64,000 nucleotides of DNA from a virus. Its lineage: Duplodnaviria > Heunggongvirae > Uroviricota > Caudoviricetes. The DNA lies in IMG/VR virus record IMGVR_UViG_3300027797_000011, one strand, 5' to 3'. Shown here piece after piece: positions 43,284-64,000 of this stretch. Position 1 is the first letter of the stretch; every line of letters begins with the position of its first letter. The notes beneath the pieces were generated by a model that made no database searches, had not been told where the DNA came from, and worked only from the letters and a program-made list of their open reading frames with translations. Position numbers and translations under genes: made by a program.

Positions 43284-43315
43284 GATGTTTCTTTCTTAAT
43301 ATAGTAATTATACAG

Positions 43316-47057: not shown

Positions 47058-47069
47058 CTGTGTGTATGA

Positions 47070-47144: not shown

Positions 47145-47166
47145 AATAATTCTCCTTTTAAGTTAG

Positions 47167-47183
47167 CATACTACAGTAGTATG
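47167..47183. promoter_or_regulatory. perfect 17-bp palindrome (operator-like) in the pqqA leader
   Basis: CATACTAC-A-GTAGTATG, about 25 nt upstream of the pqqA ATG. Confidence 0.35.
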
Positions 47184-47262
47184 TATCCTTATGATACAGT
47201 AAAAATAGTCTAAATCATATAGTGAAAATCATTGTTTTGACTTAGTGTTACTACTTACAGTC

Positions 47263-47290
47263 AAAAAAAAAAGATCCGAAGATCTTTTTT
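47263..47290. terminator. bidirectional rho-independent terminator after the OMP gene
   Basis: A10-GATCCGAAGATC-T6. Confidence 0.75.
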
Positions 47291-47338
47291 CTGCCGGTTA
47301 CGAGTTCCGGCACCGCTCAATCTTTGCGGACGATTTAA

Positions 47339-47896: not shown

Positions 47897-47988
47897 TAAT
47901 ATTTCCTTTTAAAAGATGATTTATAAAATCATTCTCTATTATATATCCGCGTTAACTACAATGTCAACAGATATTGGTTTATTATTGC

Positions 47989-49005: not shown

Positions 49006-49026
49006 TCGCCTACTACCTTAAAACTT

Positions 49027-49911: not shown

Positions 49912-49988
49912 TAACTATTTAACGCAAAATCGATTACACTAGTGTTACAGTCTGTATTATATTTGAACTAAAGTCTATTTGACTAAAA

Positions 49989-50717: not shown

Positions 50718-50749
50718 GATATTTTATCCTTGTTATCTGCTATTTAGTC

Positions 50750-50773
50750 AAAAAAAAGCCCACCGAAGTGGGC
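50750..50773 (-). terminator. rho-independent terminator of the tmRNA coding piece
   Basis: Minus sense: GCCCACUUCGGUGGGC followed by U8. Confidence 0.7.
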
Positions 50774-50779
50774 TTGGTG

Positions 50780-51110
50780 GTTTCTGTTACGAGGTATTTC
50801 CTACCCTAGGCGGCTGTTAGGCGGCCAATGCGAACTGTTCGTCGTTTGCGTTTACGTGTTGTGCTTCTACGACCGAGTTACCCCAATCCTACGGGTTCTG
50901 CTTTCCCGAGCTGTCCACTCATTTACTTGTTGCCCTGTCGAAACTATGCATCCCCATCAAAAGCATACTATTTTAGTCTGAGCGCATCACATGCGACTTT
51001 TTAACTCAACGACCTAGTATGCTTATGGTGGAGATGGGGGGATTCGCACCCCCGTCCAGAACACTTTTCTCTTTGCTTCATACAGCAATAACCTACAGTA
51101 TATATTTATT
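50780..51110 (-). ncRNA. ssrA: circularly permuted two-piece tmRNA (ssrA). Acceptor piece at about 51026-51110 ending CCA; intervening hairpin 50956-51025; coding piece 50955 down to about 50780. Tag ANDEQFALAA.
   Basis: Minus sense. The 3' end GGACGGGGGUGCGAAUCCCCCCAUCUCCACCA has a T-arm and acceptor. The 5' start GGGGAUGCAUAGUUUCGACAGGG lies 70 nt downstream of the CCA in transcription order. Acceptor GGGGAUG/CAUCUCC has a G3-U70 pair. Tag frame GCA AAC GAC GAA CAG UUC GCA UUG GCC GCC UAA. The spacer forms an AAGCAUACUA/UAGUAUGCUU stem. Confidence 0.8.
51075..51092. repeat. 18-bp direct repeat copy 1 (GCTTCATACAGCAATAAC)
   Basis: Identical copy at 51567..51584; extended imperfect similarity of about 34 bp. 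Confidence 0.8.
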
Positions 51111-51446
51111 CAGAGGAGTTGTCAATAACCTGTTACGCCAAAACTCTCGGGCCGCATCGCTTTGTTCATCGCTTGGAACTAGTACTCCGTCAATCTCACT
51201 TTGCACAATGTCGTACATCACCGTGGCAACACCCGTTCGTTTGTAACCGGAATATACTTCAATGTGATGCGGATACCATTTGTTATCTCTATCATACTTG
51301 AAAACTGCTGTGGAGATTTTTTTAGACCGAACTTTGTTTTTAATTACGGATACAGTGAATATAAGACTGCATTTATTTTTGGTGTAATCGTAAACAACTT
51401 GTTCTTGAGTTTTAATCAAAGAACAGACCAACTGATAGTCTGACAT
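51093..51446 (-). CDS. small GNAT-family acetyltransferase (117 aa)
   Basis: HIEVYSGYKRTGVATVMYD matches the GNAT acetyl-CoA-binding motif A (R/Q-x-x-G-x-G/A). Confidence 0.55.
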   Translation of the reverse strand: MSDYQLVCSLIKTQEQVVYDYTKNKCSLIFTVSVIKNKVRSKKISTAVFKYDRDNKWYPHHIEVYSGYKRTGVATVMYDIVQSEIDGVLVPSDEQSDAAREFWRNRLLTTPLNKYIL

Positions 51447-51452
51447 CAGTGG

Positions 51453-51554
51453 TCAAAAGATCGAAGTTTTTTCTTCGTCTTTGGATTTATCTCTAGTTAG
51501 ATAACCTATACCAAATACTACCCAAAATGCTAAAAATAAACATAAACCTAACAT
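51453..51554 (-). CDS. small TM peptide (33 aa) immediately upstream of the GNAT gene
   Basis: By-eye translation MLGLCLFLAFWVVFGIGYLTRDKSKDEEKTSIF. Lies between direct-repeat copy 2 and the GNAT start. Confidence 0.35.
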   Translation of the reverse strand: MLGLCLFLAFWVVFGIGYLTRDKSKDEEKTSIF

Positions 51555-51566
51555 AACTTTCCTTCT

Positions 51567-51584
51567 GCTTCATACAGCAATAAC
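51567..51584. repeat. 18-bp direct repeat copy 2 (GCTTCATACAGCAATAAC)
   Basis: See copy 1. Confidence 0.8.
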
Positions 51585-51711
51585 TTATACTATACAACAA
51601 TTAAGGAATGTTGTCAACCTTGTCGGACTCCGCAGGGCGTGTGGTTCCTCCGACTAGATTGATAGGCCTCTCACCTACTGCTATCTGCTATGCAGAAATG
51701 CCCCTGTCAGA

Positions 51712-52440
51712 TTAATGATTAATCCACTCGCTATTTTTATATGGTTTCCCAACTTCTGCTTGCGGTAGATAACTGACTATTTTTTTCTTAAAATGTTTTA
51801 TTATAGGATGACCGTGATCGTGTCCAAATGCTTTTAGATACATGATATAACAATTTTTTGTATATCTACCTTTGTGATTTTGATTTATGTAGTTTATAAT
51901 CTTTGTTTTTTTGCCGTTAAACATTTCATGTAATTCACAGGCAGTATTAAATGCATACGCATCAATCTCGTCTCTACATCCTAGGTAACCCTGCTCTTCT
52001 CTTTGCTTAGTTCTACTGGCCGTACTAGGAAACTCTGGTGTTGTTTTCCAGTTCCTACGGCGGTGTTGTCTCATGTGTATAATTTCATGTAGCACAGTAT
52101 CGGCAAATGTTGAACATATTCTAGAGAACATTCTAGGACTTAATTTTACAGGTTTTGTTTTATTATGATAATTGAAATTAATTTCAATGCATTTTTTATA
52201 TTCTGCATCAAAGTCACTATAGTATGCACCACCGATCCAAACTTTTCCCGGATCTACTTTAGTTGAATAAAGTTTTCTAAACCTAATAGGAATATATTGG
52301 TTAATTTGATTTTTAAACTTACGCTGGATTTGCTCGGGCGTAAGTTGTTGATTGACTATTTTGTCATGAGTTTGATATAAAATATCAAAAAGAGTTTTTC
52401 TATCCAATTGGAACCAGTCAAAAGCGGCGTCTTTTTTCAT
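51712..52440 (-). CDS. putative zinc metallopeptidase (HExxH), SprT-like
   Basis: VLHEIIHMRQH motif. 242 aa. Confidence 0.5.
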   Translation of the reverse strand: MKKDAAFDWFQLDRKTLFDILYQTHDKIVNQQLTPEQIQRKFKNQINQYIPIRFRKLYSTKVDPGKVWIGGAYYSDFDAEYKKCIEINFNYHNKTKPVKLSPRMFSRICSTFADTVLHEIIHMRQHRRRNWKTTPEFPSTASRTKQREEQGYLGCRDEIDAYAFNTACELHEMFNGKKTKIINYINQNHKGRYTKNCYIMYLKAFGHDHGHPIIKHFKKKIVSYLPQAEVGKPYKNSEWINH

Positions 52441-52500
52441 GATCTTACCCTATATATCAGTAATTATCCTAAAAAAACTTTCCATTATATTTGTATATAA

Positions 52501-52575
52501 TATGGCGGGCCCTGCAGGAATCGAACCCACATCGCCAAGTTCGAAGCATGGCATTCTATCCGTTGAACTAAGGAC
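52501..52575 (-). tRNA. tRNA-Arg (anticodon UCG), short (72 nt plus CCA)
   Basis: Acceptor GGGUCCU/AGGGCCC, T-loop UUCGAUU, anticodon loop CUUCGAA, CCA encoded. One anticodon-stem mismatch. Confidence 0.6.
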
Positions 52576-52582
52576 CCTTAAA

Positions 52583-52690
52583 AATGGTGTGGCTGGTAGG
52601 ACTTGAACCTACAAGGTGAAGCTAGGCTTCAAACCTATCCCTGAAACCTTTGGCGGGTTTTTCGGAGCTATGCCAATTTCGCTTACAGCC
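52583..52690 (-). tRNA. atypical 108-nt tRNA-like gene with perfect acceptor and T-arm but about 33 extra nucleotides in the anticodon/variable region
   Basis: Acceptor GUGGCUG/CAGCCAC, discriminator A, CCA. T-arm GUAGG-UUCAAGU-CCUAC. D-arm AGC-GAAAUUGGCAUA-GCU. Internal hairpins AAACC-CGCCAAA-GGUUU and GAAGC-CUA-GCUUC. No shorter cloverleaf can be closed. Confidence 0.45.
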
Positions 52691-52781
52691 ACAGTTAACT
52701 TTAACATGTTATTGTATTTAAGTCAAGTAATTGTGAGTAAATTAACTACCGTTATAAATAGCGTTATGAGAGAGTAATAAC

Positions 52782-53411
52782 ATGGTCATGTGCAATCTTC
52801 AACCTGAGTTTGATTCAAACTGGATTGATTTAATCAAATTAGATCCGGTACATCCAACGGACGAAAAAAAGAATTTAATGAGAAGATTGGGAAATGATAG
52901 ACTCATTTATACTCTTATCATGGACGGCAAACCTTGTGCCATGCTTCAGGTGGCGCTCAAAAATAAATGCCCCACTACTGCAAATGAACTTTGGAATAAA
53001 CGGGAAGATGTAGATTTTAACTATGCTGTGTTTTATTCCGTATTCCGGTTACCCGGTGCAGACAATGCCAAGGGGTCTGTAAAAGAATTAATATTTGAGG
53101 CCGCCGCAGACCTACAAAAAAGATATGTAGGAATTTCAAAGTTTATTACATTAAGCCCAATACCTAGTCTTCGTAAAAACTTTAAAAAGAATCCCGGTAT
53201 TGAAGAAGTACAAGAATACATATTCAATAAAAAAGACCCAGTAGCACGATTCCATATGATGAATGGAGCCTTACCCTGGGCTGTTAGACCAAAAGCTGAT
53301 TCTAGCAAATTACGTAAAGATGAAAGTTGGGGTTGGATGGTCAGTTATGATTATACACCACTACTAGACCATCCAACCATTAAACTACATCCTATAGTAG
53401 AAATAGCCTAA
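52782..53411 (+). CDS. malonyl-CoA decarboxylase-like catalytic domain (GNAT-fold), stand-alone 209 aa
   Basis: ITLSPIPSL (MCD TLSPIPGF motif with catalytic Ser) and ARFHMMNGALPW (MCD FHLGNGA motif with catalytic His). Confidence 0.55.
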   Translation: MVMCNLQPEFDSNWIDLIKLDPVHPTDEKKNLMRRLGNDRLIYTLIMDGKPCAMLQVALKNKCPTTANELWNKREDVDFNYAVFYSVFRLPGADNAKGSVKELIFEAAADLQKRYVGISKFITLSPIPSLRKNFKKNPGIEEVQEYIFNKKDPVARFHMMNGALPWAVRPKADSSKLRKDESWGWMVSYDYTPLLDHPTIKLHPIVEIA

Positions 53412-54017
53412 TTACATTGTAGGACCGTTTCCGTTCCTAAAGTCAATACTACCGCCTTCTTCCTTAATACGCCCTTTAACATCTTCAAACAAGATAGGCG
53501 CAAAGTCCGGAGTTTGTTCTACGCAAACGCAATGATACCGTACATCGTTCTCATCGCTGTATAAAACCTCTCCAGTTCTAGCATCAACACCACGAGCCTT
53601 CTTCACACGATTTGCATGAGTATGTCCGTGAATGTTAGTGCCAAATCGCCCCATTGAATCTGAGTGTAACGGAATATGGCTTAAGATCATTCCGTCCATA
53701 ACATGATATGCACGTAATTCTCTAAAGTATATCCTGTACTCGTCATCGCGGAAGATGTCGTGGTTGCCGCGAATCAAAACCTTGTCGCCGTTTAAACGGG
53801 CTAAGGTACTTAAAGCCTTACGGTTAATAACTACGTCACCTAAATGGTAGACCTTGTCAGTGGGTTTTACCCTTTCGTTCCACGCCTTGACCATTGCTTC
53901 GTCCATTTCCTCAGCAGAGTCCCATGGACGTAATTTTGTAACACCATCGTTACGAGTGAAGCGGCAGACGCCGGTATGTCCGAAATGCGTGTCGCTAACT
54001 AAAAATACACTAGGCAT
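53412..54017 (-). CDS. calcineurin-like metallophosphoesterase / Ser-Thr phosphatase-like
   Basis: DTHFGH, GDVV, GNHD and GHTH motifs. 201 aa. Confidence 0.7.
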   Translation of the reverse strand: MPSVFLVSDTHFGHTGVCRFTRNDGVTKLRPWDSAEEMDEAMVKAWNERVKPTDKVYHLGDVVINRKALSTLARLNGDKVLIRGNHDIFRDDEYRIYFRELRAYHVMDGMILSHIPLHSDSMGRFGTNIHGHTHANRVKKARGVDARTGEVLYSDENDVRYHCVCVEQTPDFAPILFEDVKGRIKEEGGSIDFRNGNGPTM

Positions 54018-54255
54018 CTTGCCCTCCTTTCTTTAATATGTCTCTTTTACAATTTTAAATTCTGTTGTCGGATACTTTGCTTTAAACTCTTCAGTCTTGA
54101 CGTAATCGTTATAGTGCTTTGCATCAAAAAACATACGATGGAAAACTGTTTTGTGATCCAAGGTAGTTACTGTGAGATAAACTGATTTTGCTTTGCCAGC
54201 CATTATATGCCTTTCACTGTTTAATGTAATATTATAACATCAGACACAGAGTCTG

Positions 54256-54840
54256 TCAAGGTATTAATTTTCTACGTTCTCGTCTCTCAGCCGCTAATGT
54301 AAAAACTTTCTCATTGTCATTGGTCCAGTCTATTGCTTTCTTAGGAATGATCAAACCTGACTCGAGTGTCACCCCATTAATAGAGTGCGGCTCATTTTCA
54401 TCATAGGTCCATCCTAGGTGTTTCATCATGCGATGCTTGACTAACAGGTTGGGACTACGAAAAACTTCAGTATCATCAAACCCCATCATGACACCAAGCT
54501 CGCAAACTGCACCGCTACGACATACACCTGCTACACAATGCACAATGACGTTCATCCTATTCTCTAATGCATGTTGCAATAATCGAACAAGCTCGGCGGC
54601 CTGCTCGTGACTGCAACGCATAGATTCTTCAAGTGCAAAATCCTTTTCTTCAATGTCTAAAAATTCAAACTGATGAACTTCTTTGAACGTATATTTTGGT
54701 ACAGGAAAATCACCAGGCGGATCCACAATCTGAATCAGCATGGCATTAACTCCGGGGTCAAAATGAAACCCTTTTTTGATGTCGCTTAGTGCAACGTTTT
54801 GAATCCATGGCATAATTGCCTCCTTAACATTCAATGTCAA
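54256..54840 (-). CDS. dual-specificity / tyrosine protein phosphatase (CX5R)
   Basis: Active-site signature VHCVAGVCRSGAV. 194 aa. Confidence 0.75.
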   Translation of the reverse strand: MTLNVKEAIMPWIQNVALSDIKKGFHFDPGVNAMLIQIVDPPGDFPVPKYTFKEVHQFEFLDIEEKDFALEESMRCSHEQAAELVRLLQHALENRMNVIVHCVAGVCRSGAVCELGVMMGFDDTEVFRSPNLLVKHRMMKHLGWTYDENEPHSINGVTLESGLIIPKKAIDWTNDNEKVFTLAAERRERRKLIP

Positions 54841-55030
54841 TGTGTCGACCTTTGTCTAAATCTAAACGAATATTTCTTGCTACTCGTTCTGCTATGATTT
54901 GATCAAGCCTACGCTCTTCAATCTTTTTGCTGTAATCATCGGTTCTTTGTTTCCCCAAACGAGCCTGATCCAACCGATATTGTTCTAGATTATACTTAGT
55001 AACACTTTGTTCTGCTCTTGATATTGCCAT
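54824..55030 (-). CDS. hypothetical protein (68 aa)
   Basis: ORF track. Confidence 0.45.
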   Translation of the reverse strand: MAISRAEQSVTKYNLEQYRLDQARLGKQRTDDYSKKIEERRLDQIIAERVARNIRLDLDKGRHIDIEC

Positions 55031-55257
55031 TACACTCGTTCCTTTTTAACACGACCAATACGTGATGCCTTATTCCAATCGTAGGCAACACCGTCTGGGC
55101 ATAGTCCGTTCTTCACAGCGTCCACACCAAACATCCCAACGATTTCAAAATCTGTTCCAACGATTCTTACAAATTCGTTCATGCACTTAGCAACGTTCAT
55201 TGCTTCGGCAAGTGTAAGAACTTTGAGTGTTTCTTCTTTTCCTATTATTTTATACAT
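55030..55257 (-). CDS. hypothetical protein (75 aa)
   Basis: ORF track. Confidence 0.5.
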   Translation of the reverse strand: MYKIIGKEETLKVLTLAEAMNVAKCMNEFVRIVGTDFEIVGMFGVDAVKNGLCPDGVAYDWNKASRIGRVKKERV

Positions 55258-55345
55258 ACCACTATTATAACGCTGGTTTTACCATAAGTCAACCTAAAAG
55301 AAAACCAAACTGTATGGTCTACGCCACAGTGAGTTTGGCCATATA

Positions 55346-55420
55346 TGGTCCCACCACCAGGAATCGAACCTGGATTTGAGTCTTAGGAGGACCCCGTTCT
55401 ATCCATTGAACTACAGCGGG
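55346..55420 (-). tRNA. tRNA-Arg (anticodon CCU)
   Basis: T-arm CCAGG-UUCGAUU-CCUGG; anticodon loop CUCCUAA; D-arm GUUC/GAAC; CCA encoded. The acceptor has three G-U pairs. Overlaps the 3' end of CDS 55383..55802. Confidence 0.55.
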
Positions 55421-55802
55421 CTATGATATCTGTAGAAGAATATTCTTCAATCCTGTCAAAATATACTACTTTGTTACAATATTCGTGTGCTGTAGATTTT
55501 TTATCCTGTTTCCAGTCGCTGCCTTTGACATATACGTCTGGCTGGTAACGTTTCATCAAACCAATCAAATCTTCAGTGCTATCAAATAATTCAACAATGT
55601 CTACTGCTTTAAGAGCAGATAGCATGATCCTGCGATCGTTTTGATTATTGATAGGTCGACTATTGCCCTTAAGTTCTCGAACACGACGATCTGTGTCAAT
55701 GGCAACAATAAGATAGTCACCATAACTATGTGCGGTGTTTAACAACGCAATATGCCCCGGGTGAAGTACATCAAATGTACCATTCACCATCACCGTGGTC
55801 AT
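55383..55802 (-). CDS. cytidylyltransferase-family nucleotidyltransferase (RfaE domain II / TagD-like)
   Basis: NGTFDVLHPGH HxGH signature. 139 aa. Confidence 0.75.
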   Translation of the reverse strand: MTTVMVNGTFDVLHPGHIALLNTAHSYGDYLIVAIDTDRRVRELKGNSRPINNQNDRRIMLSALKAVDIVELFDSTEDLIGLMKRYQPDVYVKGSDWKQDKKSTAHEYCNKVVYFDRIEEYSSTDIIARCSSMDRTGSS

Positions 55803-56155
55803 TTTTGACTATCGCCTTTACCCACACGATAGTTGTCTTCAACCGAATCCGGAGTACTAACTTCAATTATTGTACCTTCTTCTTGGCAAATTAATTGATG
55901 AGGCTTGCATGGTTCATTATGCCATGTATCTCCCGGTTTGAGATATGTTGTGTATTCTTCAGCGGTAGTAGTATCGATCCACTTGACAAAAAATAAGCCA
56001 TCTAATACATACCACGTTTCTTCTTTATCTTTGTGAAAGTGCAGACTAAACTTTGCACCAGTATTAAATCGCATCAATTTTCCGCAGTACTTGTCATTGG
56101 TGGCCCAAATTAATTCAGAACCCCAACCCTTTTTAACAAAACCTTCTAATCTCAT
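55799..56155 (-). CDS. cupin-fold protein (sugar isomerase/epimerase-like)
   Basis: Cupin motifs G(x)5HxH-like FSLHFHKDKEETWYVLDG and PGDTWHNEPCKPH. 118 aa. Confidence 0.55.
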   Translation of the reverse strand: MRLEGFVKKGWGSELIWATNDKYCGKLMRFNTGAKFSLHFHKDKEETWYVLDGLFFVKWIDTTTAEEYTTYLKPGDTWHNEPCKPHQLICQEEGTIIEVSTPDSVEDNYRVGKGDSQK

Positions 56156-56349
56156 TCTGGTAACTCTCTAAAACGTTGGAGGAAGCTTTCTACATAGCAA
56201 CTGTATTCTCTTGGCTCAGTATTGCTTTTTTCTCTGTAATGGACCCATGTGTGTCCATCGGGAAGATCGATAGTTCGAATTACAAAAAAGATCTTACTAT
56301 CGTTTCCAGACCATCTGCTTCCGTCTTTGGGTAATGTTACTTGAACCAT
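56152..56349 (-). CDS. hypothetical protein (65 aa)
   Basis: ORF track. Confidence 0.45.
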   Translation of the reverse strand: MVQVTLPKDGSRWSGNDSKIFFVIRTIDLPDGHTWVHYREKSNTEPREYSCYVESFLQRFRELPE

Positions 56350-56756
56350 CCTATTTTTTCTCCAGCTTGTTTACGGCGCTCATATTCTTCCGGACTGCTA
56401 GGATACCGTAACGCCCATACAGCACATAATAACATACCTAGGCCAACTCCTGCAACCAGTTTCCAGTTCCCTGTAGTAAACCAAAGAATAATTAAACTGA
56501 TGTCCATAGTGATTACCATGGCCCATTTGCCATACGTAGGGAACACACGTTTTTCAGACCAATTACGAAGAAATGGTCCAAACAATTTGTGATTCATAAT
56601 CCAGTTATGCCAGCGGTCACTGCTTTTAGCAAAACAAAACGCGGCACCCACAGTAGGTGTACTCCAGGGTATACCAGGTGTTACTACTCCAATGTAGGCA
56701 ATACCTAGGCAAATCATGCCCAGTGTAAACCAAAAAGCCTTTTTAATTTTTTCCAT
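56337..56756 (-). CDS. YbaN/DUF454-like inner-membrane protein
   Basis: Trimmed to the internal Met MEKIKKAFWF to avoid the tRNA overlap. Four hydrophobic helices. Confidence 0.5.
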   Translation of the reverse strand: MEKIKKAFWFTLGMICLGIAYIGVVTPGIPWSTPTVGAAFCFAKSSDRWHNWIMNHKLFGPFLRNWSEKRVFPTYGKWAMVITMDISLIILWFTTGNWKLVAGVGLGMLLCAVWALRYPSSPEEYERRKQAGEKIGWFK

Positions 56757-56770
56757 ATAACCTTTAAAGT

Positions 56771-56844
56771 TGGAGCGGGATACGAGAATCGAACTCGTCA
56801 CTAAACCTTGGCAAGGTTTCGAGATACCACTTCACCAATCCCGC
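56771..56844 (-). tRNA. tRNA-Gly (anticodon GCC)
   Basis: Acceptor GCGGGAU/AUCCCGC; anticodon arm AAACC-UUGCCAA-GGUUU; T-loop UUCGAUU; CCA encoded. Confidence 0.8.
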
Positions 56845-56845
56845 A

Positions 56846-57295
56846 TTACACTTTATTTACTTCTATACCACTCTTGGTTAAAAATTCTACACCGTCTGTA
56901 TTTCTGTATGCTTCCCCGTACCATACACGTTTTATTCCGCTTTGATAAATTAATTTGGCACAATCCAAACAAGGACTATGAGTAATAAACATATCACTGC
57001 CAAGGCCAGATTCGTTTGACTTAGCCAATTTAGCAATCGCATTAGTTTCTGCATGTAATACCTCTGGTCTAGTTTTAAGTTCTTTTATTTCTCGCTGGGG
57101 CACTCCATCGACTAAACCAACAACAACTTCATCTTCACAATTGTTATCCCAACCAGCCGGCATACCGTTATAGCCAATACTAATAATTCTATCATCCTTG
57201 ACCACAATAGCCCCAACATGTAATCTACGAGCATGACTAAGTTCTGCAAACGTTTTTGCAGTCTGCATATAAGCATTGACTAATTTCTGCTTCAT
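56846..57295 (-). CDS. dCMP deaminase
   Basis: Zinc motifs HAETNAI and PCLDCAKLI. 149 aa. Confidence 0.85.
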   Translation of the reverse strand: MKQKLVNAYMQTAKTFAELSHARRLHVGAIVVKDDRIISIGYNGMPAGWDNNCEDEVVVGLVDGVPQREIKELKTRPEVLHAETNAIAKLAKSNESGLGSDMFITHSPCLDCAKLIYQSGIKRVWYGEAYRNTDGVEFLTKSGIEVNKV

Positions 57296-58086
57296 TTTAG
57301 TCCTAATTCTTTTCGAATCTTAGTAGCACTAATATCAGTTATTGTTTCGTCAAATGACTCTTCGCCGGCAGTATACCCTACACCACGGCCCCAACCAATG
57401 TGTACAATGTTAGGAACAACTTGTATTTCATACTGTCCTTGGTATAAGGGATCTAGGTCACGTTTGATAAAACTTTTAACTCTAGCTACTTCAAAAGGAT
57501 TACTGCCTTGCCATCCTTGCACATCACGTACTTGAATAATAACTTGACCAGTCTTAGCAAGCAATCGTTCAAACAAGGCACGATGTCCATCATGCCACGG
57601 TTGCCAACGACCTAGCATCTGTACTGTTTCTTTCTTCCAATCGAATACGGGTCGCTTACGATTATCTATAATATGTGCGGCAATAAACTCACCCCACTTT
57701 TCTGCTTTTTGTTCTGTAATACGGAAGTCATAAACTTCAGGTTCTACAAACATGGCATTTGTATCTGCATAGCGACCTTCACGGATAGTGTCAACCCATA
57801 CAGTCCAATCTGCTTTAAAATTATTACGCATCTCAACTAAGGGTGCAACAAAGTCACAGATAACATAGTCAATGTCTGTTATAGCATCTGCTAGATCACG
57901 CATACGTTTACTTTGACGAATACGTCCAGCTTCACTAAAATCCCAGTCATCGTACTTTTTGCGTACATCGTCAGCGTTAAGCCAACCTACACGTTTCTTT
58001 TCTGCTTGTAGATGTTCTACAATATGTTGTGCTAGATAAGTTTTGCCTGCGCCCGGCAGGCCCATAATTAAAATTCGTTTAGTCAT
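57292..58086 (-). CDS. bifunctional P-loop kinase plus NadM-type NMN adenylyltransferase (probable nicotinamide-riboside kinase / NMNAT NAD salvage fusion)
   Basis: N-terminal Walker A IMGLPGAGKT. C-terminal GRWQPWHDGH matches the NadM NMNAT signature GRFQPFHxGH. 264 aa. Confidence 0.65.
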   Translation of the reverse strand: MTKRILIMGLPGAGKTYLAQHIVEHLQAEKKRVGWLNADDVRKKYDDWDFSEAGRIRQSKRMRDLADAITDIDYVICDFVAPLVEMRNNFKADWTVWVDTIREGRYADTNAMFVEPEVYDFRITEQKAEKWGEFIAAHIIDNRKRPVFDWKKETVQMLGRWQPWHDGHRALFERLLAKTGQVIIQVRDVQGWQGSNPFEVARVKSFIKRDLDPLYQGQYEIQVVPNIVHIGWGRGVGYTAGEESFDETITDISATKIRKELGLK

Positions 58087-58573
58087 TTGTTGGATTTCCG
58101 TTTTCGTCTATTTCTAACCAAGTATGGTCGCCCATGTATTTTACATGCGCCATATACTTATAATCGACAGGAGGACTAGATGACCAATCTAGAGGTCCGT
58201 TCTGTGTAAGCAAAGTATGTTGCTTTCTTTCATCCCAAACTATCCAATATGCGTTACCCATTACCGGTTGAAAAGCATATACCGCTCCGTGTACAGCATC
58301 GGTAATTTCTAATCTACGTTTGATTTGGAGTGCCTGTTTTTCTAGAACAGCAACTAATTCCATAATGCGATCGTATTCTTGCTGGGCATACATCCTAGCA
58401 TGATTAATCATTAGGTCTTTTTGTTTTTCAACAGGGACCATTTCAAACTTTGGTCCGCCCGCTTCGGTGGCATAGGGAGTAACATTCCTATTGAAAAAAG
58501 GAATTATAGATCCCGTGCTGGTCGAATCATAGCTGTTTCGACCCTTGGCCAAGTTAGGTTTTTGTATTTCCAT
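58079..58573 (-). CDS. hypothetical protein (164 aa)
   Basis: ORF track. Confidence 0.55.
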   Translation of the reverse strand: MEIQKPNLAKGRNSYDSTSTGSIIPFFNRNVTPYATEAGGPKFEMVPVEKQKDLMINHARMYAQQEYDRIMELVAVLEKQALQIKRRLEITDAVHGAVYAFQPVMGNAYWIVWDERKQHTLLTQNGPLDWSSSPPVDYKYMAHVKYMGDHTWLEIDENGNPTND

Positions 58574-58712
58574 AATTCACTTTATAGGTGCTCTCTGCGG
58601 CGCTTGAATCCACGGTAGCCCTGCTCTTCATGGCCGGTCCTTGTACATGGTCGACATTGACAAGTATTTCGGTGTTCCATTGTAGCTACTACAGAAAGCA
58701 TTTATAAAATAA

Positions 58713-58832
58713 CTTTATTAAAATATACTTCCAACAAGTGTCTTATGCTTGTTGTACCGTGTGCTATGCACATTTCCTTTGCGAGGCTCCCCCGGGTTTG
58801 GGCAACGTAGACGAAAGTATATTTTAATAAAG
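58713..58832. other. large hairpin (18-bp perfect stem enclosing 84 nt with nested helices) inside a 450-bp non-coding spacer
   Basis: CTTTATTAAAATATACTT at 58713-58730 pairs with AAGTATATTTTAATAAAG at 58815-58832. Inner CAACAAG/CTTGTTG and GTGTGC/GCACAT helices. GC-rich CTCCCCCGGG segment. Confidence 0.45.
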
Positions 58833-59026
58833 TGTCTAGCTACTCACACCACATGAGCCCTAGACTGAGCGGTTACTCTGTCCATAACATTTCTTCTTTT
58901 GGAAAGGTGTTATGCCTCACCCAATGCGTTCCCGGTGACTCTATCATGAGCTCGGATGGTCAATGCACTGAACACCTAGCACTCTCTATGGTAACTGCCC
59001 TACCCCCGTTTATTACGTGTACGGGA

Positions 59027-59563
59027 TCACGGGTTATTTCTTTCCCCGCCAAACAACTCTGTAAACCCTCTTTTCTTAAGAATAGAAGTGTATACTTTAT
59101 CTGCATCATTGTTATATGGAAAACAAAAGGCATGTGGATAGTATCCAAGATTTAACTTAAACCAATACATCATTGCCTCTGTATCACTAATTATAACATC
59201 AATTTTCTTTTGTAATCCCTGTATGATGCCCAGATCAATATGATTATGACCGTGGCCACCAACAGTTACATTAGGATCGAGTGTTAGTTCTTTTAACTGC
59301 TCAACGGTCATATAGTCTTCAAAGTTCCCTGCCCTTGCTTTAGCATGTGCTTCTTCACAAGTGGGAAAATTCAAATTCTGCCTGCTATCTCTGCAATATA
59401 TATTTGAACTAACAAAAAAATACTTGTCTGTATTAATGTTTTTAATCTGCGGCCAATAATAATATTGGCTATACAATCCGTCGTCAAAGGTTAATATATA
59501 ATCTTCTAAGGGAAGATCAAATAAAGCCTCTCCGACTTCATGTATCATTAATACAGGTTTCAT
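59027..59563 (-). CDS. polysaccharide deacetylase (NodB / CE4 family)
   Basis: LTFDDG NodB motif 1; HGHNH. 178 aa. Confidence 0.7.
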   Translation of the reverse strand: MKPVLMIHEVGEALFDLPLEDYILTFDDGLYSQYYYWPQIKNINTDKYFFVSSNIYCRDSRQNLNFPTCEEAHAKARAGNFEDYMTVEQLKELTLDPNVTVGGHGHNHIDLGIIQGLQKKIDVIISDTEAMMYWFKLNLGYYPHAFCFPYNNDADKVYTSILKKRGFTELFGGERNNP

Positions 59564-59836
59564 TTAACCAGTACGGTGAATGATGTGATATCCAAATTGT
59601 GTTTGTACAGGTCCGCTAATATGCCCGATTGGCAGGCTAAAGGTTGCATCTTCAAAAGGCTTAACCATCATACCTGTACTAAACTGTCCTAGATCGCCAC
59701 CGTTCTGTCCGCTTGGGCACTTACTAAAACTACGGGCCACTGCCGCAAAATCTTCCCCAGCAGAGATTTTCTCTTTTAAATCTACTGCCTCTGCCAATGT
59801 GGGCACTAAAATATGACTTGCTCTAACTTGACTCAT
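59564..59836 (-). CDS. parvulin-type peptidyl-prolyl isomerase (PpiC-like)
   Basis: ASHILV...GGDLGQF...GYHIIHR. Start trimmed to the internal Met to clear tRNA-Pro. Confidence 0.65.
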   Translation of the reverse strand: MSQVRASHILVPTLAEAVDLKEKISAGEDFAAVARSFSKCPSGQNGGDLGQFSTGMMVKPFEDATFSLPIGHISGPVQTQFGYHIIHRTG

Positions 59837-59855
59837 TTTATTTCCTTTATTAATA

Positions 59856-59932
59856 TGGTCGGTGTGACACGATTCGAACATGCGACCACTGCGTCCCAAA
59901 CGCAGAGCTCTACCAAGCTGAGCTACACACCG
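59856..59932 (-). tRNA. tRNA-Pro (anticodon GGG)
   Basis: Acceptor CGGUGUG/CACACCG; anticodon arm CUGCG-UUUGGGA-CGCAG; T-loop UUCGAAU; CCA encoded. Confidence 0.8.
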
Positions 59933-60171
59933 TTATTCTTCTTTCTAATTTTCATTCCAACATAAGTTCCGCAAAACGCACCTGCCATTGCCGGAATCAT
60001 CAACCAATGGTTAGTTGTATAATTTATAACTGCTATGCTTCCTAATATATAACATGCTACTGACCAAAAACTTGCTCCCAGCACATTGTCATTTGCTACA
60101 CATCGCAGATAGTAAGTATACACAACGTCAAGTAAAAAAATTGCAAAAAATGTTGTAATGTAATCTATCAT
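59923..60171 (-). CDS. small polytopic membrane protein (82 aa)
   Basis: ORF track; 2-3 TM helices. Confidence 0.45.
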   Translation of the reverse strand: MIDYITTFFAIFLLDVVYTYYLRCVANDNVLGASFWSVACYILGSIAVINYTTNHWLMIPAMAGAFCGTYVGMKIRKKNNGV

Positions 60172-60175
60172 ACTA

Positions 60176-60250
60176 CTGGTACCTGGTCACGGTTTCGAAC
60201 CGCGGACCTTCGCCGTGTAAAGGCGTTGCTCTACCCCTGAGCTAACCAGG
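60176..60250 (-). tRNA. tRNA-Val (anticodon UAC)
   Basis: D-arm UAGCUCAGGGGUAGAGCA; anticodon loop UUUACAC; T-loop UUCGAAA; CCA encoded. Confidence 0.8.
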
Positions 60251-60257
60251 CAATATC

Positions 60258-60494
60258 TTATTCGTCAGTTTTTTCTGCAATATATTCTGCTAGTCTAGCT
60301 TGATATTGTTCTTCTGTCAAGCCGTGCCAACCGCAACAATTACCAGTTGGACTGCGGCCGCAACCGCATGTACCTTTTTTCATTTCTTCTACACTTGGTG
60401 ACATATTTCTCTTTCCAAAAATTGCATCATAGTTATTGCCAAACTTTTCTTGGCTAACACTATATGGACGAGGTCTACTTCCTTTAGACATCAA
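60258..60494 (-). CDS. SEC-C motif zinc-binding small protein
   Basis: CGCGRSPTGNCCGWHG resembles the SecA C-terminal CPCGSGKKYKxCHG metal-binding motif. 78 aa. Confidence 0.5.
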   Translation of the reverse strand: MMSKGSRPRPYSVSQEKFGNNYDAIFGKRNMSPSVEEMKKGTCGCGRSPTGNCCGWHGLTEEQYQARLAEYIAEKTDE

Positions 60495-60676
60495 TCACTT
60501 CCTACATCCGACTCAGTACGAGTCTTTTTCTCCCTGACGGGTTTAATCAACGATGCAAGTTCTGCTTGAACTGTACTACGTAAAAACTCTCCACGCTTAT
60601 GTGGATCAAGGATTTGTGCCGCAAATCGCTTTGCTTGTGAACTCATTTTGTAACTAGGACCTGGTTTAATATACAT
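60491..60676 (-). CDS. hypothetical protein (61 aa)
   Basis: ORF track. Confidence 0.45.
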   Translation of the reverse strand: MYIKPGPSYKMSSQAKRFAAQILDPHKRGEFLRSTVQAELASLIKPVREKKTRTESDVGSD

Positions 60677-60695
60677 TATTACCTCTTAAAAAAAT

Positions 60696-60785
60696 TGGCG
60701 GTGTGACTGAGACTCGAACTCAGAAGCCGGATTACGCCGACCGACAGATTAGCAATCTGCTCTAATACCATTATAGGACCACACC
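60696..60785 (-). tRNA. tRNA-Ser (anticodon GCU), type II
   Basis: Anticodon loop UUGCUAA; long variable arm CGGUCGGCGUAAUCCGGCU; T-arm CUGAG-UUCGAGU-CUCAG; CCA encoded. Confidence 0.8.
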
Positions 60786-60950
60786 AATAATTGATAGCAC
60801 TCGCCGTCTATGACAACGTGTCTATTTAGGAGTCCTGCGCTAACAGTTCCAAAGCATCTAACAGCAGTTATATTAGACTTCGCACCATGCCAGTGGATGT
60901 CGTGTAGTATATGCGTCCATATACGATACCTGCCGAGAGCTATCAATTAT

Positions 60951-61034
60951 TGGTGCCCCAGGTCGGACTCGAACCGACACGCCTTTCGACACTGGCTTCT
61001 AAGACCAGCGTGGCTACCATTACACCACCGGGGC
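60951..61034 (-). tRNA. tRNA-Leu (anticodon UAG), type II
   Basis: Acceptor GCCCCGG; anticodon arm CUGGU-CUUAGAA-GCCAG; long variable arm; T-arm GUCGG-UUCGAGU-CCGAC; CCA encoded. Confidence 0.8.
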
Positions 61035-61107
61035 AAAATTCAACAGGTTAATACTAGTTTAATGACCTAGCAGTCGCCATTTTTAAATCGCTGTAATTAA
61101 CCTAAAC

Positions 61108-61181
61108 TGGTTGCGGGTCCCGGAATCGAACCAGGATCTCGAGCTTATGAGACTCGTGAGTTACCGTTTCTCTAACCCGCG
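61108..61181 (-). tRNA. tRNA-Met (anticodon CAU) with C1-A72 mismatch (initiator-like feature; could also be Ile2/elongator)
   Basis: Anticodon arm CGAGU-CUCAUAA-GCUCG; T-arm CCUGG-UUCGAUU-CCGGG; acceptor CGCGGGU/ACCCGCA; CCA encoded. Confidence 0.7.
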
Positions 61182-61400
61182 ATAATTTTTACTTGCGTCT
61201 TTTTTGAGTTTTAACAAATAATCTTTTCCGATTTTTCCTTCTTCAATTTCTCGTAGGGCTGTAACAATTGGCCCACCTTTCTTACTTACCAAAGGCATGT
61301 GTCCCCGTGTTAATTCCCGGGCACGAATAGATGCAACTAATACTAGATCGTATCTATTACCAATTTGTTCAACTGCTAACTGACTTGTAATACGTGCCAT
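61161..61400 (-). CDS. rpoZ: DNA-directed RNA polymerase omega subunit (RpoZ)
   Basis: MARITSQLAVEQIGNRYDLVLVASIRARELTRG...VTALREIEEG aligns to E. coli RpoZ [33 protein letters not shown]...VIALREIEEG. 79 aa. Last about 20 nt overlap the tRNA-Met 5' end. Confidence 0.8.
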   Translation of the reverse strand: MARITSQLAVEQIGNRYDLVLVASIRARELTRGHMPLVSKKGGPIVTALREIEEGKIGKDYLLKLKKDASKNYRGLEKR

Positions 61401-61458
61401 TGTTTAATTCCTTTATGTATTGATTATACAGTAAATCTAATTTATTGTCAATACCTTT

Positions 61459-61532
61459 TGGTGCTCTAACGTAGAATCGAACTACGATTCCTGTCATACC
61501 AAGACAGTGTTCTTCCATTAAACTATAAGAGC
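61459..61532 (-). tRNA. tRNA-Thr (anticodon GGU)
   Basis: Anticodon arm CUGUC-UUGGUAU-GACAG; T-arm CGUAG-UUCGAUU-CUACG; CCA encoded. One acceptor mismatch at 6-67. Confidence 0.75.
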
Positions 61533-61735
61533 AATGATTGGTACCCCTAGGTACGAAAGCGGTAAATATTTGTATGAAGACATACGAAAGCGTTACCCCC
61601 GGAGGATTACACTTTCATCTATCATTACATGAGGGTGTCTGCATCGTTATGGTTCGAGATATCTACGATATAGAACTAACTGTGCGATATTTTACCAACG
61701 TCAACAAAGCACTTCGCTTTATCAATAATTTGTGA

Positions 61736-62668
61736 TTAGATTATTCCAACAGAGGATAATGTTGTAATTTTTCTAAGAGGCTTGCTTTGTACTTTTGGTT
61801 TGATATCTTCAACAAATGCGTCAAATTGATCAAACGGTATTTTATGTTCTTGACGTCCTTCACCGAAAAATTCCTGAACAATCATTCCTTCGGGACTTTC
61901 TAGAAAAAATATTTGTCCAAATTCATATTCATACGGAATCTTAAAATCCTTTCCGGCTAACTTTAGCACAATATTTTCTTTTATGTCTTTAATCATTTCT
62001 GTTAATGATTGTCTGGTATTGTCCCACATGCAATTTTTATAAGCAAAATTACTGTCAATTTCTTCAACAAAGTCAATAAAATCTTGATTTAACACACGTA
62101 ATAGTTTAAATTCATCTTCATACATGTGATCTGCAATCAAAATATTAACATTCTTAAGAGAAGTTCTTTGTTTAATTTCTCTCATAGTTTGTCTAATCAC
62201 TTGCAAGTATTCACCTTGAAACTCTTCATCAACTACTAGGTTGATTTTTAAGTTGGGAATATTCTTAGCAAAAAGTTCAATATTTTTAAAGTATTTGTCC
62301 GGTAACTTGTTATCTCTTAGCACTTCCATAAAGTGTAAACTGATTGTCATGTAAAACTTGTCTTTGTGCTCAAGACTATCAATAAATCTCTTATAGTGCC
62401 ATGTGCTTAGAGTACCGTTAGTATAGGTATATGTTTTTGCCTTCTCAGTCGCTTGATTTACTAGATGTTGAAATCCTTTAAGCAACAAGGGCTCACCACC
62501 ATTTAAAACAAAACAAGTTTCATCATGGTATAATTCTAAGAGTTTACCAACTTTAGATGTATAATAATTGAAAGGACGTACATCTTGATCAAAATAATTA
62601 TAACAATACTTGCAACCTATATTGCACTTTGTAAACAGTTGATATACTAAGCAGAGTTTCTTTTTCAT
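61736..62668 (-). CDS. radical SAM enzyme (unassigned subfamily)
   Basis: CxxxCxxC cluster CNIGCKYCY and glycine-rich VLNGGEPLL. Start moved to the internal Met (MKKKLCLVYQL) because the longer track ORF would run through the tRNA at 62726..62802. No C-terminal SPASM cysteines. 310 aa. Confidence 0.7.
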   Translation of the reverse strand: MKKKLCLVYQLFTKCNIGCKYCYNYFDQDVRPFNYYTSKVGKLLELYHDETCFVLNGGEPLLLKGFQHLVNQATEKAKTYTYTNGTLSTWHYKRFIDSLEHKDKFYMTISLHFMEVLRDNKLPDKYFKNIELFAKNIPNLKINLVVDEEFQGEYLQVIRQTMREIKQRTSLKNVNILIADHMYEDEFKLLRVLNQDFIDFVEEIDSNFAYKNCMWDNTRQSLTEMIKDIKENIVLKLAGKDFKIPYEYEFGQIFFLESPEGMIVQEFFGEGRQEHKIPFDQFDAFVEDIKPKVQSKPLRKITTLSSVGII

Positions 62669-62725
62669 GTTAAGCCTTATTGGTAACATTCTATTTATTT
62701 CTATTATCTTGGCCAGGACAAGTAA

Positions 62726-62802
62726 TGGTACCCCTGGGCAGATTCGAACCGCCAACCAACAGATTTTAAGTCTATCCGCACTACCAATTAGCGTACAGGG
62801 GC
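62726..62802 (-). tRNA. class-I tRNA with anticodon UAA (Leu anticodon, but only a 5-nt variable loop)
   Basis: Acceptor GCCCCUG/CAGGGGU, discriminator A, CCA. D-arm UACGCUAAUUGGUAGUGCG. Anticodon arm AUAGA-CUUAAAA-UCUGU. Variable UGGUU. T-arm GGCGG-UUCGAAU-CUGCC. Confidence 0.65.
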
Positions 62803-62872
62803 ATTGAATGGGCTTCTCACCCAATTGGCCCTAGACGGACTGTCGATAGTTCTCTTTCACACTATCCTGGTT

Positions 62873-62949
62873 TGGTACCTTCGGGCGGATTCGAACCCCC
62901 AACCACCTGCTTCTAAGGCAAGCCGCACTACCAATTAGCGTACGAAGGC
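62873..62949 (-). tRNA. class-I tRNA with anticodon UAG (Leu anticodon, short variable loop), paralog of 62726..62802
   Basis: Same D-arm UACGCUAAUUGGUAGUGCG; anticodon arm CUUGC-CUUAGAA-GCAGG; variable UGGUU; acceptor GCCUUCG/CGAAGGU; CCA encoded. Confidence 0.65.
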
Positions 62950-63108
62950 ATTATAAGGCGGGAGCCCGACTATCTTGTTGTTAGCAAGCCTCATCGGATT
63001 GTCTCGAACACAAGAGTTTATACTACCTTATAGTCGTCTGCGGTGTCACATGGCCAACCAAAGCCATGCTAGACTATCTGGGACTCATTGTGTCGTCTAT
63101 CCCTAAAC

Positions 63109-63185
63109 TGGTACCCCGTGTCTGATTCGAACAGACAGCCAACTCCTTTTGAGAGAATCCGCACTACCAATTAGCGTAACGGGGC
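63109..63185 (-). tRNA. class-I tRNA with anticodon CAA (Leu anticodon, short variable loop), third paralog
   Basis: Same D-arm; anticodon arm AUUCU-CUCAAAA-GGAGU; variable UGGCU; T-arm GUCUG-UUCGAAU-CAGAC; acceptor GCCCCGU/ACGGGGU; CCA encoded. Confidence 0.65.
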
Positions 63186-63194
63186 ATAAAAACT

Positions 63195-63269
63195 TGGTCC
63201 GGCCTAGAAGAATCGAACTCCTATTCACAGGGTAGAAGCCTATTGTATTTTCCATTATACGAAAGCCGG
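63195..63269 (-). tRNA. tRNA-Arg (anticodon UCU)
   Basis: Anticodon arm AUAGG-CUUCUAC-CCUGU; T-arm AGGAG-UUCGAUU-CUUCU; acceptor CCGGCUU/AGGCCGG; CCA encoded. Confidence 0.7.
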
Positions 63270-63278
63270 AAATAAAAC

Positions 63279-63370
63279 TGGTACCAGCGGAGGGGATCGA
63301 ACCCTCTCAAGAACGCTAATCTGGCGCTAAAAGGCTTATAAGACCTCTCTGACTTCCAAGTCTCGCTGGC
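63279..63370 (-). tRNA. type II tRNA (long variable arm) with unusual anticodon loop CUUAUAA (apparent anticodon UAU); identity uncertain (Leu/Tyr/Ser-derived?)
   Basis: Acceptor GCCAGCG/CGCUGGU, A73, CCA. T-arm GAGGG-UUCGAUC-CCCUC. Variable-arm hairpin AGCGC..GCGUU. Non-standard D-arm. Confidence 0.5.
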
Positions 63371-63377
63371 AATAATT

Positions 63378-63466
63378 TGGCGGGGGGATGGTAGAATCGA
63401 ACTCCAACCTCGTTAAAAGTCCATCTGTTTTCAAGACAGCGCAGGGCCCAGCCCCGATAACCCCCC
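63378..63466 (-). tRNA. tRNA-Ser (anticodon UGA), type II, with imperfect T-stem
   Basis: Acceptor GGGGGG/CCCCCC, discriminator G; anticodon loop CUUGAAA flanked by CUGU/ACAG; long variable region; CCA encoded. Confidence 0.5.
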
Positions 63467-63467
63467 A

Positions 63468-63543
63468 TGGAGCGGGTAGCCGGTATCGAACCGGTCTACT
63501 TCAGTTTGGAAGACTGATGTGTATCCATAAACACCTTACCCGC
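63468..63543 (-). tRNA. tRNA-Gly (anticodon UCC)
   Basis: Acceptor GCGGGUA/UACCCGC; anticodon arm UCAGU-CUUCCAA-ACUGA; T-loop UUCGAUA; CCA encoded. Confidence 0.75.
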
Positions 63544-63548
63544 ATAAT

Positions 63549-63622
63549 TGGTACTTCGTTGGAGAATTGAACTCCCATCTACGCCATGTCACGGCATTGT
63601 TCTGCCATTAAACTACCGAAGC
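63549..63622 (-). tRNA. tRNA-Val (anticodon GAC)
   Basis: Anticodon arm AUGCC-GUGACAU-GGCGU; T-loop UUCAAUU; acceptor GCUUCGG; CCA encoded. Two stem mismatches. Confidence 0.55.
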
Positions 63623-63630
63623 ATTATTTC

Positions 63631-63798
63631 TTTTCTTGTACTTTTCTAAGACTATCTTTCTTTACTAGACAATCTCGTTGTGTGCCATCTTTAAAAACTC
63701 GTAGATATTCTATGCCGTCTATTACACGGATGTCTTTGGTGTCTTTACAATAGAATTTTTCTTTGTTAAAGACATTTTCAAAAAATAATGTTTTCATG
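63631..63798 (-). CDS. small hypothetical protein (about 55 aa)
   Basis: By-eye translation MKTLFFENVFNKEKFYCKDTKDIRVIDGIEYLRVFKDGTQRDCLVKKDSLRKVQEKK between two tRNAs. Confidence 0.35.
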
Positions 63799-63813
63799 AT
63801 CTACTCCTATATA

Positions 63814-63889
63814 TGGCGTCCCTAACGAGATTCGAACTCGTGTACCCAACGTGAAAGGCTGGTGTCCTAGGCCTCTAGACGATAGGGAC
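63814..63889 (-). tRNA. tRNA-Glu (anticodon UUC)
   Basis: GUCCCUAUCGUCUAGAGGCCUAGGACACCAGCCUUUCACGUUGGG...UUCGAAU...UAGGGACGCCA. Near-identical architecture to E. coli tRNA-Glu. Confidence 0.85.
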
Positions 63890-64000
63890 ATATTGAATTT
63901 GTAAGCCTACGCCGCATTTATCGTAGATTTATTCAGGACTTACCGGCCGCCTAGCCTGACCTCGAGCACGATGGATATCACTTGGGATCCATCCAGCGTA

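Follow-up and report, generated by a model that had tools for sequence, protein, structure and literature searches.

Does a tailed phage encode its own omega subunit of RNA polymerase (RNAP) and, if so, what might such a subunit do in an infected cell? This question is raised by an open reading frame (ORF) of 79 codons, annotated as rpoZ, at 61161..61400 on the minus strand of a viral DNA stretch of 64,000 nucleotides (Caudoviricetes; IMG/VR record IMGVR_UViG_3300027797_000011), which is referred to in full as the window. Of the subunits of bacterial RNAP, omega is understood least; it has been linked to the folding of beta-prime, to sigma choice, and to site 1 for guanosine tetraphosphate (ppGpp). 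A first-pass annotation, made from the window's sequence, had called the ORF a phage-encoded RpoZ homologue. The evidence now leaves very little doubt about this assignment. As to the wider explanation, we lean toward a putatively expressed omega of a clade of jumbo myoviruses related to phage PA5oct, which would help to maintain the host RNAP.

Identity of the rpoZ-like gene

The ORF runs uninterrupted from ATG to TAA. Its product of 79 residues (MARITSQLAVEQIGNRYDLVLVASIRARELTRGHMPLVSKKGGPIVTALREIEEGKIGKDYLLKLKKDASKNYRGLEKR) passes the cut-offs of two curated profiles, Pfam PF01192 (RNA_pol_Rpb6; 59.4 bits, E = 3.6e-16, cut-off 26) and the NCBIfam equivalog TIGR00690 (rpoZ; 48.5 bits, cut-off 23.6), so that the profile search proposed at first pass did return the RpoZ family. 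Scores stay below the cut-offs of two narrower NCBIfam equivalogs (35.4 vs. 58 and 25.4 vs. 76), which indicates that the phage omega falls into no specific bacterial subgroup. Omega chains from solved RNAP structures in the PDB match residues 1-62 or 1-66 (E = 1e-13 to 1e-12). By tblastn, residues 1-62 are 56% identical to enterobacterial omega (of the Escherichia coli/Salmonella type), and the omega subunits of E. coli and Vibrio align to residues 1-66.

An AlphaFold2 model computed with 54 homologues has a mean pLDDT of 83.7 and helices at residues 7-13, 16-31, 44-53, and 59-73. In a Foldseek comparison to the PDB, the top 50 matches listed were all RNAP omega chains (TMq about 0.68, up to 0.69), and the omega matches include the crystal structure of the E. 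coli holoenzyme with ppGpp (4jk1). The protein thus consists of an omega fold (residues 1-66) and a basic tail (residues 67-79). The earlier claim that it aligns to bacterial RpoZ along its length holds for residues 1-66 but fails for the last ~13 residues, as the basic tail has no bacterial counterpart. A frame disruption, which would have spoken against expression, was looked for and is not present in the ORF, and a conserved promoter and Shine-Dalgarno site are found upstream. Curated profile thresholds, the fold check, and the phage context described below all support the conclusion that 61161..61400 codes for a genuine phage-encoded omega homologue.

Family and fold are shared with the omega of E. 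coli and Vibrio cholerae, and the motifs GNRxDLVL, RARE/Q, and ALREIEEG are kept. Among the 54 aligned homologues, residues G14, R26, R28, E29, L30, T47, E51, E53, and G55 are invariant, and the core motifs (G14 N15 R16 D18 L19, R26 A27 R28 E29 L30, and T47 A48 R50 E51 I52 E53 G55) are invariant or nearly so. The phage protein differs from bacterial omega in the loop between helices 2 and 3, which is shorter by two residues (two single-residue gaps in the alignment), and in its C-terminal tail. The viral tails are rich in Lys and Arg, with a net charge of +1 to +6 (mean +4, n = 64), whereas the tail charge is -3 in E. coli, -3 to -9 in the gammaproteobacterial sequences compared, and +1 in Pandoraea.

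In E. coli, omega residues 2-5 take part in coordinating the ppGpp phosphates at site 1 (PMC7676912). Inspection of these positions in the alignment, which had also been proposed at first pass, revealed that they are kept: the phage omega has A2 R3 I4 T5 and E. coli has A2 R3 V4 T5, so that V4I is the sole change, and each of the four phage residues is at least 90% conserved among the 54 close homologues. An omega blind to ppGpp is therefore not supported, although no conclusion about function follows from the retention of these residues. Binding of ppGpp at the interface with beta-prime would also depend on matching residues on that subunit, which are R362, R417, K615, I619, and D622 in E. 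coli. Among the more distant viral branches, the N-terminus varies (TARYTS, SNQITS, MGLSA) or is extended.

A jumbo-phage fragment and a viral omega clade

An rpoZ gene would be of little surprise if the contig were cellular, be it from a bacterium with a small genome or a mis-binned fragment, with rpoZ being that cell's own gene. The many genes of cellular type in the window (tRNAs, transfer-messenger RNA (tmRNA), Clp, DnaJ, Def, Suf) would agree with this. Much else argues against it. The minus strand holds nearly all ORFs. The window codes for a T4-type clamp loader (phrog_168, E = 2e-76), whose closest relative is that of the 287-kb Pseudomonas jumbo phage PA5oct (53.6% identity), followed by those of Atu_ph07, Phosso, SCTP-2, RsoM2USA, and XacN1. 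The closest cultured relatives are thus all jumbo phages, and relatives are filed in IMG/VR. Also encoded are a tail-fibre-like protein, phage-only PHROG families, and a protein of 1943 residues with nine cadherin-like repeats, a YHYH domain, and He_PIG immunoglobulin-like domains, which matches virion and baseplate PHROGs. At the end of the same contig, a 17-kb stretch that reaches slightly past the window (locus L001, 1..17140) has 39 tRNA/tmRNA predictions.

The gene neighbourhood also differs from that of bacterial omega. In every retrieved bacterial locus with testable flanks (L094-L098, L105, L106), gmk is found upstream and spoT downstream of rpoZ. Neither gene flanks omega in any viral locus or in the window, and the window has no SpoT or Gmk homologue; its omega gene is instead found within an array of tRNA genes and follows a consensus promoter of its own. 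The gmk-rpoZ-spoT arrangement is a trait of cellular loci, and membership in the protein family does not depend on it. Because of its gene content, its relatedness to PA5oct, its synteny with contigs of 291-354 kb (see below), and the lack of a gmk-rpoZ-spoT context, we conclude that the window is part of the genome of a PA5oct-like jumbo phage and not of a bacterium. A cellular contig is hardly conceivable.

The same omega protein is encoded on 11 metagenomic contigs from several samples. A protein database search gave 1141 matches, the best 120 of which are 58-96% identical; 54 of these 120 were aligned, and nearly all of them start with MARITS. At least 143 IMG/VR stretches encode relatives with 50-94% identity, some on contigs of 315, 320, 331, and 367 kb. 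The contigs that carry homologues P0019 (291 kb), P0020 (354 kb), P0042, and P0007 are syntenic with the window, as judged from shared genes out of a set for dCMP deaminase, DUF454, cupin, CTP-transferase-like, DSPc phosphatase, metallophosphatase, and MCD proteins. The clade is recognized by TS at positions 5-6, GNRYDLVL, the shortened loop, VTAL.EIE.G.(I/V)G..YL, the basic tail, and a viral neighbourhood, and the window protein fits this signature. Going by shared signatures and context rather than by a tree, the viral omegas appear to form a large and old clade. On one of its contigs (locus L011, JGI 3300081886), a gene for a protein of 397 residues from the RuBisCO large subunit family (PF00016; 3964..5157), possibly a RuBisCO-like protein, is located about 5 kb from omega.

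The median ratio of nonsynonymous to synonymous substitution rates (dN/dS) is 0.25 over 571 viral pairs with usable dS. For the window, dN and dS are 0.022 and 0.171 against L013, and 0.13 and 0.57 against L011, and the ratios lie at 0.13-0.25. These values point to clear purifying selection on the viral omega. The gene is thus an old one in these phages and has been kept as a protein.

These data bear on a further explanation, namely that the phage has recently captured a host rpoZ which is carried as a passenger without a role in infection. Omega is a cellular gene and the phage holds many other host-like genes, both of which fit a capture. A recent one is difficult to reconcile with a deep viral clade (50-96% identity) that has signature features of its own and conserved synteny, with a dN/dS of about 0.25, with a conserved promoter and Shine-Dalgarno site, and with best cellular matches that are at most 57% identical. 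The last value is a soft bound: the underlying GTDB scan returned only 7 matches and depends on shared 8-residue words, so that it constrains the closest cellular relative weakly. The passenger explanation is already largely refuted and we consider it very improbable; like the cellular contig, it is effectively excluded.

The best match of the GTDB scan (60% identity; L093, CAZEDO010000145.1) is on a 7-kb contig of a metagenome-assembled genome assigned to Lentimicrobiaceae. It was not accepted as a cellular omega because it is of the viral type and has no gmk or spoT beside it. Its sequence differs by 1-2 residues from those of the IMG/VR contigs L053 and L057, and the contig is probably a mis-binned phage contig.

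Promoter and tRNA embedding

In the 5' to 3' direction of the minus strand, the first element is tRNA-Thr(GGT) (61459..61532; ARAGORN and Rfam). This is followed by a sigma-70 promoter which matches the consensus at 12 of 12 positions (61423..61451; TTGACA, 17-nt spacer, TATAAT), by the Shine-Dalgarno sequence AAAGGAA (61408..61414, read from the sequence), which is 7 nt before the ATG at 61400, and by the rpoZ ORF. The ORF runs into tRNA-Met(CAT) (61108..61181; ARAGORN, Rfam 56.9 bits), and the co-oriented genes for tRNA-Leu(TAG) (60951..61034) and tRNA-Ser(GCT) (60696..60785) are found downstream. As a scan of the minus strand from 61400 to 60700 gave no terminator-like site, rpoZ and the three tRNA genes that follow it are probably transcribed as one unit. 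By eye, tRNA-Met shows initiator-like features (mismatch C1·A72, pair A11:U24, CCA encoded in the gene), while the run of three G:C pairs found in the initiator anticodon stem is missing.

The promoter hexamers and the Shine-Dalgarno site are retained in relatives despite diverged flanks, the latter in L001, L013, L011, L012, and L014. When 60 distinct viral omega loci were compared, 10 had a promoter match of at least 11/12 no more than 120 nt upstream of omega, as opposed to 3.5% of control windows; among the matches listed, these are positioned 50-69 nt upstream. A tRNA gene on the same strand is located within 100 nt of omega in 19 of the 60 loci, and 35 have tRNA genes within 3 kb. The order Thr-rpoZ-Met recurs in L001-L011, L013, and L017, while the tRNA partners vary over the clade (Thr/Met, Ser/Arg, Gly/Ala, Gly/Ser, or Met upstream).

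The overlap between the coding sequence and tRNA-Met that had been described at first pass exists, with a length of 21 nt (61161..61181) rather than 20 nt. It comprises six codons (RGLEKR) and the TAA stop. The first base of codon 74 is also the first base of the tRNA, and the stop falls into the D-loop. The overlap is 21 nt long in L001-L011, L013, and L014, thus being kept across a subclade with 76-96% protein identity, and 18 nt long in L012. In L017-L019, L043, L052, L061, L064, and L084 the stop is 6-9 nt ahead of the tRNA. The overlap is derived and belongs to the window's subclade: in the alignment with L017, the ancestral stop can be seen slightly farther upstream, at a distance of 6 nt from the homologous tRNA.

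This arrangement suggests a mechanism by which omega might limit its own output. If RNase P cut the transcript where the tRNA begins, the omega message would end after codon 73 and have no stop; ribosomes would stall, the phage tmRNA would tag omega, and ClpAP would degrade it, so that the amount of omega would be tied to tRNA processing. The tRNA starts exactly at the boundary between codons 73 and 74, the overlap is kept throughout the subclade, and the phage codes for tmRNA, ClpA, and ClpP. This proposal, which is drawn from the sequence, has to be set against the derived nature of the overlap: most of the clade has a stop 6-9 nt before the tRNA or no tRNA nearby. It is simpler to assume that the ancestral stop was lost by a frame change in a dispensable tail and that this loss was tolerated, in which case the loss of the stop upon processing is a side effect and not a designed control. 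We thus regard such self-limitation as improbable.

Consensus promoters are not confined to the omega gene. Matches to TTGACA-N16-18-TATAAT with 11-12 of 12 positions occur 13 times on the coding strand and once on the opposite strand of the window, while 1.6 are expected from shuffled sequences. The 13 sites of the minus strand have -35 hexamers that begin at 61451, 55292, 54259, 51617, 51125, 47967, 47013, 43335, 40804, 38926, 33466, 29591, and 8683. PA5oct has no RNAP of its own and is sensitive to rifampicin (PMC7318152). Together with the strand bias of 13 vs. 1 promoters, this makes it most likely that the region is transcribed by the host sigma-70 holoenzyme. The hexamer at 51125 lies at the gene for a permuted, two-piece tmRNA (50726..51118, minus strand; tag ANDEQFALAA; Rfam tmRNA_permuted 119 bits, RF01850 118 bits). 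The match to RF01850, a betaproteobacterial two-piece family, is a possible clue to a betaproteobacterial host.

All of the 18 tRNA genes and the tmRNA gene of the window are on the minus strand (40680..63889). The call for tRNA-Ile(TAT) (63279..63370) is 92 nt long and may hold an insertion. Host-like proteins encoded in the window are ClpA, ClpP, DnaJ, peptide deformylase, a GroES-like protein, a peptidyl-prolyl isomerase (PPIase), MazG, PhoH, SufBD/SufC, and UvdE. A proteostasis set within these comprises a ClpA-like ATPase (754 residues), deformylase, DnaJ, a GroES-like Cpn10 (a weak match), ClpP, and a parvulin-type PPIase, with genes at 4983..8625, 19772..20149, 35567..36157, and 59564..59839 on the minus strand. 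The genes for a SufBD-like protein and a SufC-like ABC ATPase adjoin the cadherin/YHYH gene (regions 28028..29591 and 22121..27952, minus strand).

Proposed role and comparison with known systems

Omega acts as a chaperone of beta-prime, and its absence shifts the holoenzyme from sigma-70 toward sigma-S (PMC7700224). On this basis, the following course of events can be envisaged. Early in infection, the host sigma-70 holoenzyme would transcribe the phage rpoZ from its consensus promoter, as the leader of a tRNA unit. The phage omega would then bind host beta-prime at the normal omega site, replacing or supplementing the host omega, and would keep the host core saturated with omega, which would stabilize beta-prime and core assembly. 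The sigma-70 holoenzyme would thereby be favoured on the many consensus promoters and tRNA genes of the phage throughout a long infection. The protein would act beside the phage-encoded ClpA, ClpP, DnaJ, GroES-like protein, deformylase, PPIase, tmRNA, and tRNAs, and saturating RNAP with omega would pay once host gene expression falls. Effects on sigma competition or on ppGpp are conceivable as well. While the explanation as a whole is slightly favoured, we consider the case for its mechanistic core, an omega loaded onto the host core enzyme to sustain or bias sigma-70 transcription, to be evenly balanced.

Several points weigh against maintenance of the host enzyme. Omega is dispensable in E. 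coli, and what is gained from an extra copy is not obvious. Binding of the phage omega to RNAP is presumed from family membership. That phages of this group lack an RNAP is deduced only from PA5oct and from promoter content; the 64-kb window and the retrieved neighbourhoods (up to ~21 kb each), in which no gene resembling those for beta or beta-prime occurs, are parts of genomes of 290-370 kb. With its basic tail and a loop shorter by two residues, the viral omega may not simply substitute for that of the host. Finally, tRNA 5' processing in the window's subclade would strip the stop from the omega message and lower its yield, which is hard to square with a demand for large amounts of omega.

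The main alternative is a modified, "private" omega which displaces that of the host to change the behaviour of RNAP rather than to maintain it. It might do so by altering the response at ppGpp site 1, by binding sigma-70 more weakly and thus aiding a switch to late phage transcription, or by offering its basic tail as a dock for a phage activator. The basic tail and the shorter loop are common to the clade. Structured dominant mutants of omega reduce sigma binding about fivefold (PMC7700224), and GafA activates gene-transfer-agent genes by direct contact with omega (PMC9638019). Also in favour are the MazG gene of the window and two genes close to omega in relatives. Locus L002, from a sibling strain, is 99.9% identical to the window over the 5.2 kb that they share (58831..64000 of the window) and then diverges. 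It contains an ORF of 61 codons (6538..6723), about 3.3 kb from omega, which matches the RNAP-binding domain of SutA (PF20661, 30.8 bits, cut-off 29.3) and would be a second putative RNAP-binding protein; the window and all loci were searched for a SutA-like gene, and L002 was the only one to have it. In L091 (IMGVR_UViG_3300032297_000559), a gene at ~5100..5498, about 2 kb downstream of the viral omega, matches the HD domain of SpoT (residues 39-151, 35% identity, E = 3e-10, motif HDVVEDT). It may code for a small alarmone hydrolase and is the single such case among the loci.

An omega that changes RNAP behaviour has its own difficulties. The near-identity of residues 2-5 to those of E. coli does not indicate a ppGpp-blind design, the phage uses many sigma-70 consensus promoters, the SutA-like and hydrolase neighbours are single cases among 60 distinct loci, and the partner protein is hypothetical. 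We therefore take this alternative to be possible but distinctly less likely than maintenance of the host RNAP. The first-pass annotation had proposed that omega, together with MazG, tunes RNAP assembly or the stringent response. MazG was recovered at 19351..19797 (PF03819, E = 8e-9), and such tuning would be plausible.

It is also conceivable that these elements belong together. A jumbo-phage omega with a basic tail, set in tRNA operons and expressed from sigma-70 promoters, would then convert the host RNAP to a phage-adapted enzyme through a change in ppGpp site 1 input, sigma competition, or the recruitment of a phage factor, with its output in the window's subclade being gated by tRNA 5' processing and tmRNA/ClpAP. 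This combination is rather unlikely. If true, omega would be a regulatory subunit that is exploited by viruses, and the phage variant would help to dissect a function that has long been unclear.

Phages that keep an omega of their own under purifying selection, while PA5oct leans on the host RNAP, imply that the supply or the identity of omega limits transcription in real infections. With their basic tail and shorter loop, the viral omegas are natural variants for testing omega function. Omega is also added to the list of single parts of the host machinery (tRNAs, tmRNA, chaperones, proteases) that jumbo phages carry.

The closest cultured phages by clamp loader are the large T4-related myoviruses PA5oct, Atu_ph07, XacN1, SCTP-2, and RsoM2USA (39-54% identity). 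This group resembles the window phage also in its large genomes and tRNA genes, of which XacN1 has 56, and PA5oct in its dependence on the host RNAP (PMC7318152). An omega gene was found neither in these five phages nor in any other genuine GenBank phage record by tblastn with four viral omega queries. Each query returned the same 6-9 of 50,697 GenBank phage records, two of which were inspected. CAKLQH020000003.1 (L105; Acinetobacter phage MD-2021a, one of two contigs) has a bacterial gmk-rpoZ-spoT cluster together with pilus and ispH genes, and in MG065691.1 (L106; UNVERIFIED Campylobacter phage A11a) the omega match is flanked by gmk and spoT. Two further "phage" records are Salmonella genome contigs. 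The remaining ones are unannotated fragments of 1.6-4.4 kb and were not counted as omegas of cultured phages. Being mislabelled or chimeric, the records L105 and L106 can lead astray those who look for host genes in phages.

PHROGs contain no omega family; the only match of the phage protein is marginal (E = 0.024), to a family that is unrelated and has no known function. Megablast of the last 5 kb of the window against GenBank phages returned tRNA matches only. Full-text literature searches and look-ups in papers on jumbo-phage genomics (PMC7824862, PMC12619734) yielded no phage-encoded omega; a supplementary table may list one.

Jumbo phages of the phiKZ/AR9 type likewise encode homologues of RNAP subunits. 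They have split beta and beta-prime subunits and no homologue of alpha or omega (PMC7598289). As far as the window and the retrieved neighbourhoods extend, the situation here is the reverse, with omega as the only subunit and with promoters of the host sigma-70 type. The small RNAP subunits of poxviruses and of African swine fever virus (RPB6 homologues) are virus-encoded too and belong to the same omega/RPB6 superfamily. These viruses encode a whole polymerase, whereas the phage omega is of the bacterial type and presumably joins the host enzyme. The regulators GafA (of RcGTA) and SutA act via or near omega and illustrate that virus-like elements can use this subunit as a handle for regulation (PMC9638019). 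They bind omega or the beta lobe of the host, while in the case described here the phage supplies the subunit itself. The omega of the window is thus a member of a known protein family in a viral role and a viral lineage for which no earlier description was found.

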